A stretch of DNA of 64,000 bases from Dehalococcoidia bacterium (GCA_041390685.1 JAWKPL010000001.1:2081581-2145580); one strand, 5' to 3'. Shown: positions 4,098 to 33,441, counted from the stretch's first letter. The notes: generated by a model not told the origin, from the letters alone. A program made the numbers and translations.

Positions 4098-6524
4098 ATG
4101 CTCGTCTCCTTGAAGTGGCTCCGCGACTACGTCGACGTGCCCGTGGACATCGATGTCGACGACCTCGCGACACGCCTCACCATGGCCTCCTCCGAGGTCG
4201 AAGGCGTCCATCGCGTTGGCGACTGGGACCGCGCGCTCGTCACGGTGGGCAGCGTGCTCGCCGTCGACCCGCACCCGCAGGCCGACCGCCTCCGCTTGGC
4301 CACCGTGGACTTCGGCGGCGACGCACCGCAGCAAGTGGTGTGCGGCGCCCCCAACCTCGCCGTTGGTCAGCGCGTCGGCTTCGCGCGCGAGGGCGCGCGG
4401 CTGTTCGATGGGCACTCGGGCGAGCCCTCCGTGCTCAAGCGCTCGAAGATCCGCGGCGTCGAATCTGCTGGCATGGTGCTCTCCGAGCGCGAGCTCGGCC
4501 TGTCCGAGGCGCACGAAGGCATCATCGAGTTGCCCCTCGACGCTCCCATCGGAACGCCGCTCGCCGACTACCTCGGCGACGTGGTCCTCGACGTCCACAC
4601 ATGGCCGAATCGCGCCGATACGATGTCCATGCTAGGCATTGCCCGCGAAGTGGCCGCCATCCTCGGCACGCAGTGGCGGGCTCCGGACGACCCGTATCCC
4701 GAGGCCGGCCCGGCCGCCTCCGATGCCGTGTCCGTGCGTATCGAGGACGCCGACCTCTGCGCCCGTTACATCGCCACCGTCGTCGACGGCGTCACCGTCG
4801 GACCGTCGCCGGCGTGGATGCAGGAGCGGCTGCGCGCCGCGGGGCAGCGCCCCATCAACAACGTCGTCGACATAACTAACTACGTCATGCTCGAGCTGGG
4901 GCAGCCGCTGCACGCCTTCGACCTCGCGAAGGTCCGAGGCACGGTGGCGGTCCGTTCCGCGCACGAGGGTGAGCGCCTCACGACGCTCGACGGCGAGGAC
5001 CGCGAGCTGACCACGGCGACGCTCCTGATCACGGATGACAGCGGGCCGATCGCGCTCGCGGGCGTGATGGGCGGGCTGGACACCGAGGTGACGGACGCCA
5101 CGACCTCAGTCCTCCTTGAGGCGGCTCGCTTCGATCCGGCAAGTATTCGCCGTACCTCGACGCGTCTGCACCTCCGCAGCGAAGCCTCATCGAGGTTCGA
5201 GCGTGGCCTCTCAGCCGAACTTGCGGGCCATGCCTCGCGCCGCGCAACCAGGCTCCTCGTTGAGCTGTGCGGCGGGGCAGCGCGGCAGGGTACGGTCGAA
5301 GTCTACCCGCGACCGCATGCCTCGCCGGCCGTCACACTCACCCGCGCCCGCCTCAACACGCTGCTCGGTTTCGTCGTCCCCACCGAAGAGGTCGAGGCGA
5401 TCCTCGGCGCGCTCGGCTTCGACGTCCGCGCCACCGGCGATGCCTTCGAGGTACGCCCCCCCTGGTGGCGCAGTGACGTCTCGATCCCCGATGACGTCGC
5501 CGAGGAGGTGCTCCGCATCGCCGGCTACGACCGCCTGCCCGCCACGATGCCTGCCGGGCAGGTGCCTCACCACGAGGCCCAGCCTGCCATCGAGCTGCGG
5601 GACCGCCTGGCCGATTCCTTCGTGGCCGCCGGCGCGCACGAGGTGATTACGTACTCGCTGACCACCGACGAAGTGCTCGCCCGCGTCATGCCACGCGGGG
5701 CACTCGAGGCACAGCCGCCTCTCAAGCTGCTGAACACGCTGTCCTCGGAGCACGAGTCGCTGCGCCCCACGTTGCGCCACTCGATTCTTGACACCGTCGC
5801 CCGCAACATCCGCGCCGGCGCCAGCCGCATCGTCGTGTTCGAGACCGGCCGCGCCTACCTCCCCCGCTACGAGGAAGGTGCGGGCGGACCGCTTCCCGAC
5901 GAGCGCGAGCACCTGACGGGTGCCGTCACGGGCTTCGAGGTGGACCGCTGGGGCTCCTCCGCTGGCCGCCGCTTCGACTTCTTTGACGCGAAGGGCATCC
6001 TCGACGCCGCGCTCGGCGGCATCGGTGTCTCGCTCGCCTACGCACCGGCCGACGAGGAGTTCGGCTTCCTGCCCGGGCGGACGGCCACCCTGTCCGTCGC
6101 CGGGCAGCCCATCGGGATCCTCGGCGAGGTGCACCCGCGTACGCTGGAGGCGTTCGACATCGAGCAGCCGGTCCTGGTCTTCGAGCTCGACCTCACCCTG
6201 CTGCAGCCGCTGGTTTCCGATCGTCTCAGGGCGGTGTCACCGCCGCGCTTCCCCGCCGTCGAGCAGGACCTGGCGCTCGTGATCGACGACACGGTCCCTG
6301 CTGGTCGCCTCCAGGCCACGATCGAGTCCTCGCGTTTGGTCGCGAGCGCCCGCGTGTTCGACGTCTATCGAGGCGAGCAGTTGCCGCCGGGGAAGAAGTC
6401 CGTCGCCTTCTCCATCCGCTACCAGGCTGCCGACCGCACCCTGACCACGGACGACGCCAACCGGGAGCAGGCGCGCCTCCTCGCTCGCCTCGAGCGCGAG
6501 TTCGGCGCCGCCGCGCGCGGCTAG
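4098..6524 (+). CDS. pheT: Phenylalanine-tRNA ligase beta subunit
   Basis: 808 aa. The N-terminus MLVSLKWLRDYVDV, a tRNA-binding domain, B3/4 and B5 regions and a FDX-ACB-like C-terminus (FDVYRGEQLPPGKKS) are present. Confidence 0.95.
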   Translation: MLVSLKWLRDYVDVPVDIDVDDLATRLTMASSEVEGVHRVGDWDRALVTVGSVLAVDPHPQADRLRLATVDFGGDAPQQVVCGAPNLAVGQRVGFAREGARLFDGHSGEPSVLKRSKIRGVESAGMVLSERELGLSEAHEGIIELPLDAPIGTPLADYLGDVVLDVHTWPNRADTMSMLGIAREVAAILGTQWRAPDDPYPEAGPAASDAVSVRIEDADLCARYIATVVDGVTVGPSPAWMQERLRAAGQRPINNVVDITNYVMLELGQPLHAFDLAKVRGTVAVRSAHEGERLTTLDGEDRELTTATLLITDDSGPIALAGVMGGLDTEVTDATTSVLLEAARFDPASIRRTSTRLHLRSEASSRFERGLSAELAGHASRRATRLLVELCGGAARQGTVEVYPRPHASPAVTLTRARLNTLLGFVVPTEEVEAILGALGFDVRATGDAFEVRPPWWRSDVSIPDDVAEEVLRIAGYDRLPATMPAGQVPHHEAQPAIELRDRLADSFVAAGAHEVITYSLTTDEVLARVMPRGALEAQPPLKLLNTLSSEHESLRPTLRHSILDTVARNIRAGASRIVVFETGRAYLPRYEEGAGGPLPDEREHLTGAVTGFEVDRWGSSAGRRFDFFDAKGILDAALGGIGVSLAYAPADEEFGFLPGRTATLSVAGQPIGILGEVHPRTLEAFDIEQPVLVFELDLTLLQPLVSDRLRAVSPPRFPAVEQDLALVIDDTVPAGRLQATIESSRLVASARVFDVYRGEQLPPGKKSVAFSIRYQAADRTLTTDDANREQARLLARLEREFGAAARG

Positions 6525-27269: not shown

Positions 27270-30062
27270 GTGCCTGCTTTCGCGCACCGCGAATACGTCG
27301 CCATCGACCTCGAAACGACCGGCTTCGACCCGGCCGCGGACCGCATCATCGAGGTCGGCGCCGTACGCTTCGACCGCGCCGGCCATGCCCGGCGCTTCCA
27401 GTCGCTCGTGCAGCCCGGCCGTCCCATTCCGCCCTTCGTCCAGACGCTCACTGGCATCACGGACCACGATGTTGCCGATGCTCGCCTCCAACTCGATGTC
27501 ATCGAGGAGCTGCGCGCCTTCGTCGACGGCTGCGAGGTCGTGGGGCATAACGTCCAGTTCGACCTGAGCTTCCTCCAGGCGGCTGGCCTGGCGTTCGACC
27601 GGCCGTCGCATGACACCTTTGACCTTGCCTCCGCGCTCCTGCCGGCGGCCACACGCCTCGGCCTCTCCTCGCTCGCCGCGACGCTCCGCATCGACATGCC
27701 GGTCGCCCACCGCGCGCTCGCCGACGCCGATGCGACTCACCGCGTCTTTCTCGACCTCCTCGACCGCCTCGAGGCGCTGCCCCGCGCCGTCCTGCTCGAC
27801 CTCCTCAGCATCGCAGACCAGTCGGAGTGGTCCGCCCGCGCGCTGCTCCTCGAGACGCTCGAACGCGACGGCGGCGCCCCGCCCGCGCCCGCTGCCCCCC
27901 TGTCGTCGCTGGTGCTCGCGCCACCCACCCCCATCCCACCCCCGCTCGTCCCCCGTGACGATCAGCGTCCGGTGCACCGCCCCGACGTCGATGCGCTGTT
28001 CGCGGCGGCAGCCGCCAGCCCCCTGTTGCCCGGGTTCGAGGTGCGTGAGGGCCAGTTGGCCATGGCCCGAGCCGTGGCCACGAACATCGAGTACGCCGGC
28101 CACCTCGCCGTCGAGGCCGGGACCGGGACCGGTAAGTCCGTCGCCTACCTGTTGCCCTCCCTCCTGCACGCCCTCCGCAACGACGACCGCGTCGTCGTCT
28201 CCACGCACACGCTGAACCTCCAGGAGCAGCTCGCGCAGCATGACCTGCCCGCGGCGGCCGCCCTCGTCGAAGCCCACGAGGGGGTAGCGCCGGGTTCGCT
28301 GCGTGCCACGGTCCTCAAGGGCCGCGCCAACTACCTCTGCCTCGAGCGCTGGGCGGAGCTGCGCGCCACGCCCCAGCCCCGCAACCAGACCGAGGCGCGC
28401 CTCCACGCGCGCATCGCTGTCTGGCTCCCTACCACCGAGACCGGCGAGCTGGGCGAGATCGCCGTCGCCGCCACCGAACGCAGCGCGTGGAACGCCCTCT
28501 CCGCCGACAGCAACGATTGCCTTGCGCGCCGCTGCGCGTACGTCCGCGACGGCAGCTGCTTCCTGCTGCGCGCCCGCGCCCGCGCCGCCGCCGCTCACGT
28601 CGTGATCGTCAACCACGCGCTCTTGCTCACGAACGCCGCCACCGGCGATCAGGTCCTGCCGCCCTTCCGCCACCTCGTCGTCGATGAGGCGCACCGCCTC
28701 GAGGGAGCCGCCACCCAGCGCTATGGCGCCAGCCTATCGCTCCGCGATCTCGAGTCCGCCATCGAGGCGCTCGGCCCTGCTGCGCTCCGCATGCGCGAAC
28801 TTGCCGCCGGGCACGGCGCACCGCTGTCTCCCATGGCCGGCCTGCGCGGTGTAGCCGACGCGCTCACAGCGGCCGCCGCGCGTGTCCTCGCCCGCATCCC
28901 GGACCTCGACGCGACGCTGCGCGACTTCCTCGCGGAGTTCGAGGAGGCCCCGGGCGCCGACCAGCCACAGCTCCTGATCACCGCCGCCAGCCGCGCGCAG
29001 CCCTCATGGGGCGACGTCGAACTCGCGGCCTCGCAGCTCGACGCAGCGCTCCTCAGCTGCAACGACCGCCTGCTTCAGGCCCGCTCCGCGCTCAACGACA
29101 TCGAGGAGGGCAGCGCGTCGTTCGTCGACCGTCTGCGCTCGTCGATGGCCGCGACCTCTGAAACTGCCTCCGCAGCCCGCTGGGCCCTGCAGGACGCCCT
29201 CCTCCGCACGGACCCGGCCTCGATCGTCTGGCTGGCCGGCAGCAACGGCCACGTCCGTGTGAACATCGCCCCCCTCGAGGTCGCCGACCGCCTCGCCTCC
29301 GACCTCTATGCCGCGCGCACCTCGGTCACCGTCACCAGCGCGACGCTCACCGCGAACGGCTCCTTCGACTACAGCACCCGCTCCCTCGGCCTCTTCGAGC
29401 CCGATACGCTCGCCGTCCCGTCGCCGTTCGACTACCGTCGCGCCGTCCTGGCGCTCGTGGTCGACGACATCCCCGCCCCCGACGAACCGGGCTACGCCGA
29501 GGCGATGCAGGCCGTCCTCGCCGAGGCGACGCGGGCCGCCGGCGGGCGCACGCTCGCGCTGTTCACGTCCCACAGCGCGGTGCGCGCCGCCGCCGAGGCG
29601 CTGGCCGCCCCGCTCGCCGCCGATGGCATTTCCGCGCTCGCCCATCAGGTCGATGGCTCCCCTGCCCGTCTGTTGCGCGCTCTCGTCGAGCAGCCCCGCA
29701 CGCTGCTCCTCGGCACGGCCGCGTTCTGGGAAGGCGTCGATGTGCGCGGCGACACCTTGTCGCAGATCGCGGTCGCGCGCCTTCCGTTCCCCGTCCCCAG
29801 CGAGCCGGTCTACGCTGGCCGCGCCGTCCTCTACGACGACCCCTTCTCGGAATACGCGCTTCCCCAGGCGGTGCTCCGCTTCCGCCAGGGCTTCGGCCGC
29901 CTGATCCGCGGGCAGGACGAACGAGGCGTGTTCCTCCTCCTCGACCGCCGCGCGCTGACCCGCGCCTACGGCGAAGCGTTCCTCGAGGCACTCCCGGACT
30001 GCGAAGTCCGGCACGTGCACGCCGCGGAGGTGCCACACGCGGTCGCTCGATGGCTCGCTTGA
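27270..30062 (+). CDS. dinG: Bifunctional DEDD 3'-5' exonuclease / DinG-family ATP-dependent helicase
   Basis: The N-terminus has YVAIDLETTGFDP...VVGHNVQFDLSFL...HRALADA (epsilon-like exonuclease). It is followed by helicase motifs EAGTGTGKS, DEAH and TSATL in a RAD3/XPD-like layout. Confidence 0.9.
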   Translation: MPAFAHREYVAIDLETTGFDPAADRIIEVGAVRFDRAGHARRFQSLVQPGRPIPPFVQTLTGITDHDVADARLQLDVIEELRAFVDGCEVVGHNVQFDLSFLQAAGLAFDRPSHDTFDLASALLPAATRLGLSSLAATLRIDMPVAHRALADADATHRVFLDLLDRLEALPRAVLLDLLSIADQSEWSARALLLETLERDGGAPPAPAAPLSSLVLAPPTPIPPPLVPRDDQRPVHRPDVDALFAAAAASPLLPGFEVREGQLAMARAVATNIEYAGHLAVEAGTGTGKSVAYLLPSLLHALRNDDRVVVSTHTLNLQEQLAQHDLPAAAALVEAHEGVAPGSLRATVLKGRANYLCLERWAELRATPQPRNQTEARLHARIAVWLPTTETGELGEIAVAATERSAWNALSADSNDCLARRCAYVRDGSCFLLRARARAAAAHVVIVNHALLLTNAATGDQVLPPFRHLVVDEAHRLEGAATQRYGASLSLRDLESAIEALGPAALRMRELAAGHGAPLSPMAGLRGVADALTAAAARVLARIPDLDATLRDFLAEFEEAPGADQPQLLITAASRAQPSWGDVELAASQLDAALLSCNDRLLQARSALNDIEEGSASFVDRLRSSMAATSETASAARWALQDALLRTDPASIVWLAGSNGHVRVNIAPLEVADRLASDLYAARTSVTVTSATLTANGSFDYSTRSLGLFEPDTLAVPSPFDYRRAVLALVVDDIPAPDEPGYAEAMQAVLAEATRAAGGRTLALFTSHSAVRAAAEALAAPLAADGISALAHQVDGSPARLLRALVEQPRTLLLGTAAFWEGVDVRGDTLSQIAVARLPFPVPSEPVYAGRAVLYDDPFSEYALPQAVLRFRQGFGRLIRGQDERGVFLLLDRRALTRAYGEAFLEALPDCEVRHVHAAEVPHAVARWLA

Positions 30063-30616
30063 ACGCTGACGCCCCGTCCCGCGCGAACCGCATCTGGGCG
30101 CGCGGCTTTGGCGTCACGCTCCGCCCGGCAACGCCTGCCGAGGTCGCGACGCCTGGCATCCAGCGCGCGCTCCGTGACGGCATCGGGCGCAACTACGAGG
30201 GCGACCTGCCCGCTGCCCCGGCCGGCTCGCAGTGCTATGCGATCTACGCGCAGGGCGCGCTTGTCGGCCTGCTCGCCTTCCGCGTCGATATTCCCGCCAC
30301 GGGCTCAGTCGTCTTCGATTGCATCGCCGTCGCGCCAGCGCATCGCGGCCACGCGTACGGGGCACGCGCGTTGCTCGCCGCCGAGCGCCGGCTGCGAGCG
30401 CCGTCCTGCTACGGCCGCGTCCCGAGGACGAACGGGCGCGGGCTCTACTTCTTGCTGCGCTGCGGCTACGCGCCCGTGCCGCCGCCACTCGGGGACGGCA
30501 CTACCTGGTTCCGCCGCCATCATCGGCGGCCGACGGCGGCGCCTGCGGTCGCGTCGGCTGCTGCCGCGCCGCCCGCGAGGCGGCCATCCGCGCGCGGATC
30601 CAGCGCCGGTAGCTGA
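30050..30616 (+). CDS. GNAT-family N-acetyltransferase-like protein
   Basis: IAVAPAHRGHAYGARAL (acetyl-CoA-binding motif A-like) and GYAPV. The start overlaps the dinG end by 13 nt. The Arg/Ala/Pro-rich tail may be non-functional read-through. Confidence 0.55.
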   Translation: MARLNADAPSRANRIWARGFGVTLRPATPAEVATPGIQRALRDGIGRNYEGDLPAAPAGSQCYAIYAQGALVGLLAFRVDIPATGSVVFDCIAVAPAHRGHAYGARALLAAERRLRAPSCYGRVPRTNGRGLYFLLRCGYAPVPPPLGDGTTWFRRHHRRPTAAPAVASAAAAPPARRPSARGSSAGS

Positions 30617-30839
30617 GGAACACAAACGCCGCGGCCGCCAGCGGCAGCACAAGGTCGAAGACGTTCTCCAGGCCCTCGGGTAGCGCGACGGAGGCGCGCC
30701 CGATCCAGGCCCCCGCCAGGAGCGTCGCCCAGAATCCGAGCCCGAATCCCCGCCCCGCCGACGCTTCCGCCGGAGGTGGCGGGCGTCGCTCGACCTCCGC
30801 ACGGCGGCGCCGTCCGGGCTGCGACGGCCGTCCGCTCAC
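30501..30839 (-). CDS. Small predicted 2-TM protein (112 aa), last gene of the cca operon
   Basis: Only the 3' third of track ORF 30501..31247 is kept. The GTG at 30839-30837 overlaps the stop of the preceding zinc-finger gene (GTGA). Hydrophobic segments are FGLGFWATLLAGAWIG and VFDLVLPLAAAAFVFLSY. It overlaps the GNAT 3' tail convergently by 116 nt. Confidence 0.4.
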   Translation of the reverse strand: MSGRPSQPGRRRRAEVERRPPPPAEASAGRGFGLGFWATLLAGAWIGRASVALPEGLENVFDLVLPLAAAAFVFLSYRRWIRARMAASRAARQQPTRPQAPPSAADDGGGTR

Positions 30840-31072
30840 GAACCGGCCGCTCGCGCCTCGCGCAGCTGCGCGGTCGTGCCCTCCATGCAGGGCCGGCAGA
30901 AGAAGTCGAGCGTCGGCTCGAGGCCGGAGTCGATGGACGCGTCGCCGCAGTCCTTCCCTGGCGTCTGGTACGGGTTCAGGTGGTAGTCCTGCCCGCACCC
31001 GTCGCATGAGGCGAGCAACCGCCGGTCCTCGACCGTTTCCTCGCACACCCAGCAGGTCATCCCGGACTCCAT
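30836..31072 (-). CDS. Mini zinc-finger protein, PHD/RING-like C4HC3 pattern (78 aa)
   Basis: Ligands are C7, C10, C23, C26, H31, C42, C59 and C62, with the core SCDGCGQDYHLN. A GGGGAG SD lies 6 nt upstream. It is a paralogue of the adjacent 77-aa gene. Confidence 0.7.
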   Translation of the reverse strand: MESGMTCWVCEETVEDRRLLASCDGCGQDYHLNPYQTPGKDCGDASIDSGLEPTLDFFCRPCMEGTTAQLREARAAGS

Positions 31073-31084
31073 CGTTGGCTCCCC

Positions 31085-31318
31085 TCAGCCCACCCGCGCC
31101 AGCCGCCCGCCCGCCGCCTCGCCCTGGAGGCGCGCGCCGCACGGGTCGCAGTACACGCTCCAGCCGCACGCCGCGCCCACGTAGGCCGCCCCGCAGCTCG
31201 TCTCGTCGATGTCCGCGCGCAGGTTGAGGTGAAACGGTCGCAGGCACTCATCGCAAATCGCGTGTCGCGCCGGCGGCACCACCTCTCCACAGACGGTGCA
31301 CAGGACCCCGTCAGGCAT
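31085..31318 (-). CDS. Mini zinc-finger protein, PHD/RING-like C4HC3 pattern (77 aa)
   Basis: Ligands are C7, C10, C22, C25, H30, C42, (C51), C57 and C60, with the core ICDECLRPFHLN. The ATG overlaps the cca stop (ATGCCTGA). Confidence 0.7.
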   Translation of the reverse strand: MPDGVLCTVCGEVVPPARHAICDECLRPFHLNLRADIDETSCGAAYVGAACGWSVYCDPCGARLQGEAAGGRLARVG

Positions 31319-32588
31319 CGTCCGTTCGCTCCTCGGCCAGCCACGCGCGCACCGCGCGCCGTGCGTCGGCCACTCCCGTCAGAGTGCCGAGGTACCGCTC
31401 GCGGCGCAAGCGCCGCAGCATGACGCCCAGCCGGGGCCCCGCCGGCACTCCCATCGCCTCGATCGCACGCCCGTCGAGGTGGGCGCGCGTCCGCTCCCAC
31501 CGCCGCAACTCCCGCTGCAGGGCGTGCTGCCGCTCCGGTTCGATCCACCGCGCCGCCGTCCGTCCCACCTGCCCCGTGTCCGCGATCCGGTCGAGCGCCT
31601 CCGGCTCCATGCTCGACGCTTCGAGAAGGCGCGTGGCGTCGCGCACGGCCTCCGCTGCCTCCCGTGGGGGGCTCAGCCGCTGCCGTGCGCGCTCCCGCTC
31701 GGGTGCGTCCAGCGGCGCCAGCAGCACCGCCAGCAGCACGTCCACTCCAATGGGCCCCGGCCGGCGTCGCAGCGCCCGGACACTCACCGCTGGAAGCCGC
31801 AGCCCCGCGCTGGTCGCTTCAAGCACGCCCCACCGGTCGAGGAGTCGCAGCGTCGCGAGGACTCGACGCTCCTCCGCCGTGCGCTCGAGCTCCGCCCACA
31901 GCCGCCGTCCCGATACCGGTGCCAGCCAGCGTCCGCCTTCCTCGATCAGCCGCGCCGTCTCCGCCGTTGGCCGGAGCCCCACGCGCGCCGCGTAGCGCGC
32001 CCCGCGCCACAGCCGTGTCGCGTCGTCCGCGAACGAACGCGGGTGCAGCACCCGCAGCCGCCGCGCCGCGAGGTCCGCCAGTCCTCCATATGGGTCCACG
32101 ACCTCGCCCGTCCGCGGCCCTGAGAGCCCGAGCGCGACCGCGTTCACGCTGAAGTCGCGCCGCCCGAGGTCGTCCTCGATCGTGGCCCCGAGCCGCACTG
32201 CGGGGAGCGCCCCAGGACGCGCGTACGTCTCTGTCCGCAGCCCCGCGAGGTCGAGCCGGAGTCCGCCCGCGTCGACCCAGGCCGTGCCGAACCGCTCCTC
32301 GACGCCCGCGCGGCCGCCACTGCGATGCGCAAGGTCGCTCGCGAACCTCCCCGCGTCCCCCGCCACGGCCAGGTCGAGGTCGCGCACTCCGAGGCCCGCG
32401 CACAGGTCTCGCAGACATCCTCCGACCGCCCAGACCTCCAGTCCTGCCTCGGCTGCGGCTTCCCGTGTGGCGCGCAGGATCGAGCGCAAGGGCGCGATCA
32501 GCGCGCCATCGAGGGCACTCAGATTAGGATGCGTAAGCGGATGATCCGTTCTTGACACTCCGGACCCCGCTTCGTACGATCCCCGCAC
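31311..32588 (-). CDS. cca: Class II tRNA nucleotidyltransferase (CCA-adding enzyme / poly(A) polymerase family)
   Basis: VGGCLRDLCAGLGVRDLDLAV, RRDFSVNA and DDATRLWRGARYAARVG. The N-terminal boundary is uncertain (GTG at 32588 or 32558). Confidence 0.88.
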   Translation of the reverse strand: MRGSYEAGSGVSRTDHPLTHPNLSALDGALIAPLRSILRATREAAAEAGLEVWAVGGCLRDLCAGLGVRDLDLAVAGDAGRFASDLAHRSGGRAGVEERFGTAWVDAGGLRLDLAGLRTETYARPGALPAVRLGATIEDDLGRRDFSVNAVALGLSGPRTGEVVDPYGGLADLAARRLRVLHPRSFADDATRLWRGARYAARVGLRPTAETARLIEEGGRWLAPVSGRRLWAELERTAEERRVLATLRLLDRWGVLEATSAGLRLPAVSVRALRRRPGPIGVDVLLAVLLAPLDAPERERARQRLSPPREAAEAVRDATRLLEASSMEPEALDRIADTGQVGRTAARWIEPERQHALQRELRRWERTRAHLDGRAIEAMGVPAGPRLGVMLRRLRRERYLGTLTGVADARRAVRAWLAEERTDDA

Positions 32589-32655
32589 TCGCCGGGCACG
32601 AGTTCGACTCTACGTCTGCGGCGAGACCCTGGCCCACGACATCGTACGGTGGCGG

Positions 32656-33441
32656 ATGGCGTACGGTGGGAGAGGCGGACGAGTGGTTTCCGCATCCGCA
32701 GCTGCTGCTCCCGGCGACGCCCTCCCCGGTCGCCCGAGCCATGAATCGCAAGCGCAGGACAGCCTCGGTCTCGTCTTCGACGACCCGGGCCTGCTGCGCG
32801 TCGCCCTGACGCATCCCTCGTACGCGAACGAGCACCCGGAACAGGGACAGGACACGAATGAGCGGCTTGAGTTCCTGGGCGACGCCGTCCTCGGCCTCAT
32901 CGTCGCCGAGTCGCTCTACGCGGACTTCCCCGACATCGAGGAAGGACGCCTCACCGAATGGCGCGCGCAGCTCGTCTGCGGGCCGACGCTCGCCCGCGTC
33001 GCCACGCGCCTCGGGTTGGGTGACCTCCTGCTCCTCGGCCGCGGCGAGGAAGCCACCGGCGGCCGCGGTCGTGAGGGCAACCTCGAACGCGTCTTCGAGG
33101 CCGTCGTCGGTGCCGTCATGCTCGACCGCGGTCTCGAGGCCGCTCGCGACTTCGCCCAGCGCTCACTCCGCGAGGAGTTCGCGGCGCTCGATGGCGATCC
33201 CGGCGTGCTGAACCCGAAAGGCGCGCTCCAACAGCTCGTGCAGGGCGTCCTCGGCCGCCCGCAGTACGTCACCGTCGCGGAGGAGGGCCCGGAACACGCG
33301 CGCCGCTTCACCATCGAGGCCCGCATCGAGGGCGAGGTCGTCGGCACCGGCGTGGGCTCCAGCAAGCACCAGGCAGAGAAGGAAGCCGCGCGCCAGGCGC
33401 TCACGCTCATCCGCGCTCGCCTCGCCGAGCAGGCAGGCTAG
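32656..33441 (+). CDS. rnc: Ribonuclease III
   Basis: NERLEFLGDAVLG (signature motif), FEAVVGAV, and a C-terminal dsRBD (KGALQQLVQ...SSKHQAEKEAARQAL). The start may be the internal GTG at 32683. Confidence 0.93.
   Translation: MAYGGRGGRVVSASAAAAPGDALPGRPSHESQAQDSLGLVFDDPGLLRVALTHPSYANEHPEQGQDTNERLEFLGDAVLGLIVAESLYADFPDIEEGRLTEWRAQLVCGPTLARVATRLGLGDLLLLGRGEEATGGRGREGNLERVFEAVVGAVMLDRGLEAARDFAQRSLREEFAALDGDPGVLNPKGALQQLVQGVLGRPQYVTVAEEGPEHARRFTIEARIEGEVVGTGVGSSKHQAEKEAARQALTLIRARLAEQAG

Follow-up and report, generated by a model that had tools for sequence, protein, structure and literature searches.

Four chained open reading frames (ORFs) at 30501–32588, on the minus strand of a 64-kb stretch of Dehalococcoidia DNA (the window; 70% GC), encode a class II tRNA nucleotidyltransferase (NTase), two small predicted zinc fingers (finger 1 and finger 2), and a protein with two transmembrane helices (the hairpin protein). 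The fingers belong to a Cys4-His-Cys3 family, whose members are encoded beside the orthologous NTase gene in 37 of 38 finger-bearing sources. Sequence comparison suggests that the family is a previously undescribed variant of a known fold, found in a new conserved genomic partnership with the NTase. Finger and hairpin may together form a membrane-tethered protein-interaction adaptor which localises or regulates the enzyme, a tentative reading to which we give slightly less than an even chance.

The NTase (31311–32588) features a PolyA_pol head domain, and measures 425 aa as counted from the longest ORF. Finger 1 (31085–31318, 77 aa) is a divergent paralogue of the PHD-like zinc finger, finger 2 (30836–31072, 78 aa) the copy nearest to relatives found as single fingers in other genomes; the hairpin protein (30501–30839) is 112 aa long. 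The NTase stop and the finger 1 ATG share 8 nt in ATGCCTGA. The two finger genes are separated by the 12-nt spacer GGGGAGCCAACG (31073–31084), which includes the putative Shine-Dalgarno-like hexamer GGGGAG (31079–31084), and the GTG of the hairpin ORF overlaps the finger 2 TGA (GTGA). The chain, its overlaps, the spacer and the hexamer had been described in a first-pass annotation of the window, and all are present in the sequence. Neither a sigma-70-like promoter nor a convincing terminator was found between the four genes in a promoter scan of the locus, and an Rfam scan of 30000–33200 returned no RNA element.

Chance long ORFs are common at such GC content. Long spurious ORFs are plentiful in the window, and one of 248 aa overlaps finger 2 in another frame. 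That the three small ORFs are likewise chance open frames, not expressed as proteins, is nevertheless effectively refuted by conservation. The ratio of non-synonymous to synonymous substitution rates (dN/dS), calculated against four orthologous loci, is 0.20–0.34 for finger 1, 0.22–0.31 for finger 2, and 0.18–0.23 for the hairpin protein (0.18–0.34 over the three small genes), with dS up to 1.6. For the NTase it is 0.29–0.46, and the overall range of 0.18–0.46 indicates purifying selection on all four genes. The GC content at third codon positions is 0.83–0.92 in the called frames of the chain, and values of 0.85–0.92 in called frames tell against chance ORFs. The finger family, which counts 215 representative clusters, is moreover found in low-GC marine lineages (L012–L020, L049), where all ligands are retained.

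Conservation of the finger family and its linkage to the nucleotidyltransferase gene

The predicted ligands of finger 1 are arranged as C7-x2-C10-x11-C22-x2-C25-x4-H30-x11-C42-x14-C57-x2-C60, those of finger 2 as C7-x2-C10-x12-C23-x2-C26-x4-H31-x10-C42-x16-C59-x2-C62, the latter with a core reading HLNPY...PGKDCGDA. The two proteins are paralogues, as the first-pass annotation had proposed, and share 35% identity over 75–78 aa (E = 2.6e-4). Direct searches retrieved just 7–8 relatives per finger, a profile search 67. When 1.84 billion cluster representatives were searched exhaustively with a profile, 215 matched at E <= 1e-3, 117 of them at E <= 1e-10; the family amounts to about 215 clusters at 50% identity. 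Nearly all members measure 63–210 aa. In their sources the relatives are named 'hypothetical protein', save for one 'predicted nucleic acid-binding Zn-ribbon protein' (P0007).

Eleven positions (C7, C10, C23, C26, H31, L32, N33, C42, G43, C59, C62) are invariant in an alignment of 16 close sequences, and invariant or conserved at more than 90% in an alignment of 69. The complete eight-ligand Cys4-His-Cys3 motif was found in 184 of the 208 relatives collected; the homologues thus make up a real family with conserved ligands, as anticipated from the two window copies. The residue three positions after the ligand His is Pro or Leu, never Cys, and the next ligand follows after 10 residues in finger 2 (H-x10-C) and after 11 in finger 1 (H-x11-C). 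Two profile matches deviate from this picture. In P0143 (546 aa), TFHLSPHQ... repeats account for nine partial matches, to 22 positions of the finger profile; this repetitive protein has no Cys ligands, and was rejected as a false positive of the profile search. P0168 (682 aa) is a single called ORF with garbled NTase-like, finger and transmembrane-like segments, and in all likelihood results from read-through or a frameshift in the gene call for a high-GC contig, not from a true triple fusion.

The tandem arrangement described in the first-pass annotation holds for the sub-clade of the window only (window, L001/2, L004/5/8, L006, L007, L112/113); elsewhere most relatives are single fingers. 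Finger 2 is 46–59% identical to these, finger 1 about 30–40%, and the finger gene has evidently been duplicated in tandem in the window's sub-clade. Orthologues of finger 1, the C-terminus of which reads RLARVG, are P0009–P0025. A Pro-rich linker and, at the C-terminus, a conserved RRR[YF]RRI[DE] tail are found in most single-finger relatives.

The 38 finger-bearing sources, window included, were gathered by look-ups and scans, and several are near-duplicates from different samples. The alignment-based genome scan used the PGKDCGDA pattern only, and is biased towards finger-2-like members. In 37 sources the finger starts between -8 and +41 nt from the stop of the orthologous NTase gene. The core Dehalococcoidia loci are syntenic throughout a block in which the SMC and RNase III genes run divergently from the NTase, finger and hairpin genes, and a GNAT and a DinG-like gene run convergently towards these from the opposite side. 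The block persists down to identities with the window proteins of 27–30% for the NTase and 34% for SMC. One record, L019, is titled 'Deltaproteobacteria bacterium UBA6930', and encodes over the locus proteins identical to those of Dehalococcoidia UBA2979 (L020); the sequence was probably binned or labelled wrongly in the public record.

Five loci have a different organisation. In L026, L114 and L115 the NTase and finger genes overlap by 4 nt, the hairpin gene is absent, and a convergent peptidase-like gene lies downstream. In L032 NTase and finger are 1 nt apart, the upstream gene is a different one, and RNase III, hairpin and GNAT genes are absent. In L049 the gap measures 24 nt, genes have been inserted, and a dehydrogenase gene follows downstream. 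The NTase-finger linkage outlasts rearrangement of either flank, so that the partnership first noted in the window is kept where the surrounding genes have changed. The upstream ORF in L032 is RelA/SpoT-like by eye reading.

Fold of the finger domain

PHD is the family closest to the fingers in Pfam, in the profile search of the PDB, and in Foldseek comparisons. The Pfam PHD model (PF00628) aligns with finger 2 over its whole length (profile 1–47 of 47) at 23.5 bits, the cutoff being 24; finger 1 scores 15 bits. Prok-RING_1 (PF14446) gives 20.9 bits with finger 2 (cutoff 29.1), over positions 4–40 of 54 only. When 69 members were compared one by one with Pfam at E <= 0.01, PHD was matched by 19 (best E = 5.8e-6), C1_1 by 13 and Prok-RING_1 by 6. 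A profile of the finger family searched against PDB sequences found at the top the PHD finger 1WEV (E = 6e-4, end to end, over 71 profile positions), WSTF 1F62 (1.4e-3), and then further PHD fingers.

AlphaFold2 models have a predicted local distance difference test score (pLDDT) of 88 and a predicted template modelling score of 0.73 for finger 2, and a pLDDT of 92–97 for the finger core of P0007. The solved folds best matched by these two models in Foldseek are the PHD fingers of BHC80, BAZ2A/B, UHRF1 and DPF3, Rim2, and FYVE domains (E >= 0.06, template modelling scores 0.5–0.63). Rim2 2A20 is the single best match (probability 0.99, score 0.63 on target). Comparison with viral models gave just weak matches to uncharacterised proteins. 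Taken together, profiles and models point to a PHD/FYVE-like fold class, and the first-pass placement among PHD fingers stands as far as the nearest fold class is concerned. It does not stand as family membership: the fingers lack the H-x2-C spacing, and score below the gathering threshold.

PHD-type fingers are regarded as eukaryotic chromatin modules, and bind histone tails. With those of WSTF/BAZ1B (1F62), INTS12 (1WEV), BAZ2A (4Q6F) and BHC80 (2PUY) the family shares the Cys4-His-Cys3 order, an aromatic residue just ahead of the last CxxC, by prediction a small beta-hairpin core and a C-terminal helix, and an acidic character of the surface kind that PHD fingers use on basic peptides. The C-x2-C...C-D-x-C-x3-[FY]-H core of the window proteins is near-identical to CDECNKAFHL in WSTF. 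In contrast to PHD fingers, the sixth ligand lies 10–11 residues past the His, in an invariant (D/S)CG, and is accompanied by an invariant HLN and an inserted loop. The fingers are also free-standing bacterial proteins of 63–140 aa, found in the context of a tRNA enzyme and a membrane hairpin rather than of chromatin.

FYVE, rabphilin and Rim2 domains (2A20, 1ZBD, 2YW8, 1Y02), like C1 domains, are of the binuclear fold class predicted for the fingers. Their action at membranes or on partner proteins is in keeping with a membrane-tethered adaptor. The FYVE signature motifs WxxD, RR/KHHCR and RVC are not visible in the finger alignments; a basic lipid-binding pocket is not expected, since the domain is acidic, and all E-values are >= 0.06. 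Prokaryotic RING finger family 1 (PF14446) is likewise a bacterial binuclear treble-clef finger. It matches finger 2 weakly (E ~3e-4), and precomputed annotation places it on a few finger orthologues, but ubiquitin-like, E1/E2 and JAB genes are absent from all finger neighbourhoods seen. The family was reportedly described by Burroughs, Iyer and Aravind in 2011, together with other prokaryotic binuclear treble-clef fingers.

The eight ligands could alternatively build two sequential zinc ribbons or knuckles, the likeness to PHD being a by-product of CxxC spacing. The double zinc ribbon models DZR, DZR_2 and Zn_ribbon_6 (PF12773/PF18912/PF07191) do give weak matches (E 0.0002–0.04). The window proteins match at E 0.012–0.044, scoring well below the cutoffs, and between 3 and 7 of the 69 relatives match too. 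Ribosomal zinc-ribbon proteins appear lower down the Foldseek lists, and the sixth ligand is displaced (H-x10/11-C). Such an arrangement is improbable. The end-to-end alignment of the PHD profile and the long alignment with 1WEV speak against it; PHD hallmarks are present in the CDxCxxx[FY]H core and in an aromatic residue ahead of the last CxxC; interleaved sites typically have a His four residues past the second CxxC, as here; and the Foldseek matches with probability above 0.7 are nearly all PHD, FYVE or Rim2. Each finger is predicted to hold two zinc ions.

The membrane hairpin, the nucleotidyltransferase and the neighbouring genes

The hydrophobic helices of the hairpin protein cover aa 32–53 (30681–30746) and 60–77 (30609–30662), and each has Arg-rich flanks. 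An Arg-rich segment, GRRRRAEVERR (30783–30815), lies near the N-terminus, and a juxtamembrane motif, YRRWIR (30594–30611), follows the second helix; all are encoded on the minus strand. According to the positive-inside rule Arg-rich flanks are cytoplasmic, and both termini are therefore placed in the cytoplasm. Conserved in the family are a Gly-rich first helix, a short loop, the second helix, and a juxtamembrane [YW]R[RKT][WF][AIV]R. Searches of Pfam and NCBIfam found no model that covers either the fingers or the hairpin protein.

The hairpin gene lies directly 3' of the finger in 31 of the 36 loci with enough downstream sequence, often with an overlap of 4 nt. A profile built from ten ORFs downstream of fingers has no match in 78 NTase loci which lack a finger. 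Finger, Pro-rich linker, basic segment and two-helix hairpin are fused in one chain in P0042 and P0085. P0042 is an intact ORF, found on L111 immediately past an NTase 3' end. The two natural fusions support the earlier suggestion that the fingers could be tethered to the membrane through the last gene. In the window lineage finger 2 has no tail, finger 1 ends with the RLARVG mentioned above, and the hairpin protein starts with RRRRAEVERR followed by a Pro-rich stretch. The RRRRAEVER of this N-terminus is similar to the RRRFRRIDR tails that single-finger proteins carry. The border of finger and hairpin has thus shifted during evolution, as expected of two parts of one unit. A programmed frameshift joining finger 2 to the hairpin ORF, considered because of the natural fusions, was rejected: the GTGA junction offers no slippery sequence, and the two ORFs are each conserved on their own.

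The NTase matches Pfam PF01743 at 76.3 bits (cutoff 23). On the minus strand motif A (GGCLRD at 32406–32423, DLD at 32367–32381), motif B (RRDFSVN, 32142–32162), motif C (DPYGGLAD, 32073–32096), motif D (DDATRLWR, 32004–32027) and motif E (RRLWAELE, 31884–31907) can be read. In an alignment of ten diverse orthologues motifs A to E are invariant, and conform to class II enzymes: A (GGxxRD...DxD), B (RRDF), C, D ([ED]DxxR), E. The nearest relative in the PDB is the A-adding enzyme of A. aeolicus (4WBY/1VFG, E = 1.8e-38), followed by the CCA-adding enzyme of T. maritima (3H37, 6.4e-34), a Bacillus CCA enzyme (4e-15) and the Aquifex CC-adding enzyme (1e-10). With the Aquifex A-adding and Thermotoga CCA class II enzymes the window protein shares the head domain, the five motifs, a similar length and a C-terminal LGV..GP.LG motif. 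It reaches no NCBIfam equivalog cutoff, scoring 135.8 bits with the A-adding model NF041569 (cutoff 1440) and 104 with CCA_actino (cutoff 438.8), and no second NTase was found within the 64-kb window. The name tRNA nucleotidyltransferase is safe, on sequence grounds, for the product of 31311–32588. The label CCA-adding, given by the first-pass annotation, is too specific, as A-adding and CCA-adding enzymes cannot be told apart from sequence. All three tRNA genes in the window carry an encoded CCA end, as had been stated before and was borne out by inspection of the genes; because of this the NTase would act in 3'-end repair, whether it adds CCA or A.

The start of the NTase is doubtful. A strong match to a sigma-70-like promoter (TTGACA-17-TACGAT, 10 of 12 positions, 0.0 expected in shuffles) is found on the plus strand at 32552–32580. 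It is directed at the divergent RNase III gene and falls within codons 1–12 of the longest NTase ORF. The site overlaps the codons following GTG 32588, and the true start may be at GTG 32558 or later. The conserved 'VSRTDHP' N-terminus may in that case be promoter DNA rather than protein.

A defence system made of an NTase and a transmembrane effector was considered and discarded, as the locus forms part of a conserved block of housekeeping genes (SMC, RNase III), and the full tRNA-NTase motif set is found in the enzyme. Another membrane protein recurs next to NTases. In at least 7 loci lacking a finger (L042, L063, L067, L085, L098, L102, L109) a gene for a membrane metalloprotease-like protein of the M50/site-2-protease type, with the motif HExxH...LNPLKHLDP read by eye, lies directly 3' of the NTase.

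On the far side of the chain the hairpin ORF and a GNAT acetyltransferase ORF (30050–30616, plus strand) overlap at their convergent 3' ends by 116 nt (30501–30616). Gene calls in L001 and L004/L005 show similar overlaps between the two genes. The last 30-odd residues of the GNAT protein are of low complexity and poorly conserved, so that its called stop may lie too far downstream. The next gene (27270–30062, plus strand) encodes a DinG-like protein of 930 aa, in which an N-terminal RNase_T-type exonuclease domain is fused to a helicase C-terminal domain. In almost every locus it is conserved as the last gene on the right of the syntenic block.

A putative membrane-tethered adaptor

Finger domains have a median net charge of -7, and are negative in 182 of 184 cases (99%), while the last 25 residues of the finger tails have a median charge of +5. 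In the window, net charges are +10 for the NTase, -3 for finger 1, -8 for finger 2 and +9 for the hairpin protein. In the P0007 model the pLDDT is higher in the tail (70–77) than in the linker (66–68), a contrast compatible with docking of the tail. The charge pattern argues that this acidic PHD/FYVE-like module would be a poor candidate for direct binding of RNA, and a good one for binding a basic peptide or protein surface.

We propose a Dehalococcoidia-specific operon in which the NTase would be followed by a translationally coupled acidic zinc finger of PHD/FYVE fold and, in most lineages, by a two-helix hairpin protein. Finger and hairpin would most likely be one unit, in which the zinc finger stays in the cytoplasm, anchored to the inner face of the membrane. 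Depending on the lineage, the unit would be encoded as a single fusion, as a finger with basic tail plus a hairpin, or, as in the window, as a finger plus a hairpin preceded by the basic segment. The acidic finger could grip a basic target, be it the RRR[YF]RRI[DE] tail, the Arg-rich N-terminus of the hairpin, or the net-basic NTase, and repair of tRNA 3' ends would as a result be localised or regulated at the membrane. Zinc binding, association of finger and hairpin, and contact of the finger with the NTase or an effect on it are predicted components of this scheme. A fuller version, in which finger and hairpin make up a genuine accessory subunit of a bacterial tRNA NTase, with a 'reader'-type finger on an Arg-rich peptide localising or gating 3'-end repair at the membrane, is rather unlikely on present grounds.

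Several observations weigh against the adaptor. The evidence that finger and NTase would touch is their gene context, and much of the linkage in the core loci could have been inherited as gene order. Of 80 loci with NTase relatives obtained in a metagenome scan, 78 have no finger and carry varied downstream genes, such as those for an M50-like protease, RbfA (4 loci), a YfiH-like protein (4) and ScpA (2); the enzyme type therefore works without a finger. In a rough neighbour-joining tree of the NTases the core finger-linked enzymes form one clade, and L026 and L032 fall among relatives without a finger. The finger is therefore a lineage-restricted accessory, not a general need of this type of NTase. 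The finger of L027 is the sole exception to NTase adjacency. It is finger-1-like and lies at 4900–5216, at a contig end next to an aldehyde dehydrogenase gene. Because of a frameshift its first CxxC (CEVCG) is read in a different frame; the copy is a pseudogene or else an artefact of long-read assembly. A hairpin partner is missing from five finger loci, so that a membrane tether is not universal. At the level of the fold, every structural and profile match to PHD/FYVE is below threshold (Foldseek E >= 0.06), and cross-brace pairing of the ligands is a prediction from model and profile likeness.

Part of this evidence would suit a finger-hairpin pair with a function of its own, such as a membrane-associated zinc-finger factor for membrane proteins, lipids or the envelope, which merely shares a transcript with the NTase and owes its position to inherited adjacency. 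This is the main rival to the adaptor, and is possible, if on the unlikely side. It is favoured by the complete synteny of the block from SMC to the DinG-like gene in core loci, by the many related NTases without a finger, by the L027 finger with no NTase nearby, by the weak matches of 13 of 69 members to the lipid-binding C1 domain, and by the FYVE domains among the structural neighbours. The rearranged loci tell a different story. In L026, L114, L115, L032 and L049, from which the hairpin gene and one or both flanks have been lost, NTase-finger is the only adjacency left, and in four of the five a gap or overlap of 1–4 nt is kept; the hairpin partner is less persistent than the NTase. The suggestion that the fingers are RNA- or tRNA-binding specificity subunits, which aid the NTase in recognising its substrate, had been made in the first-pass annotation. 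It draws on the operon link to a tRNA enzyme, on the Arg-rich tail RRR[YF]RRID of many single-finger relatives, which could contact RNA, and on the name given to P0007 by one source. Set against it are the acidity of the folded domain across 99% of the family, finger 2 of the window being both strongly acidic and tailless, and the nature of the nearest folds, PHD, FYVE and Rim2 being known as binders of peptides, proteins or lipids. A direct role in RNA binding is disfavoured by these data, and quite improbable. The membrane-tethered adaptor is, tentatively, the preferred reading.

To our knowledge, tRNA nucleotidyltransferases are regarded as stand-alone enzymes. Literature searches found no dedicated accessory protein for the family of A-adding and CCA-adding enzymes, from which the window differs in having a candidate one. 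They also found no zinc finger tied to a bacterial tRNA NTase and no PHD-like fingers in Chloroflexota, though a mention in a survey of prokaryotic treble-clef domains is possible. Dehalococcoidia are hard to culture, and are important for dehalogenation and for the cycling of carbon in subsurface and marine settings. Through the present data about 200 clusters of unannotated small proteins of these bacteria receive a name and a place in an operon. If the proposed partnership is true, the finger would be the first dedicated partner known for a CCA- or A-adding enzyme, and would exemplify in prokaryotes a PHD mode of binding outside chromatin. It would add a new bacterial branch, with a displaced sixth ligand, to the PHD/FYVE fold, a candidate factor for regulating or localising the repair of tRNA 3' ends, and a further case of RNA-processing machinery organised at the membrane.

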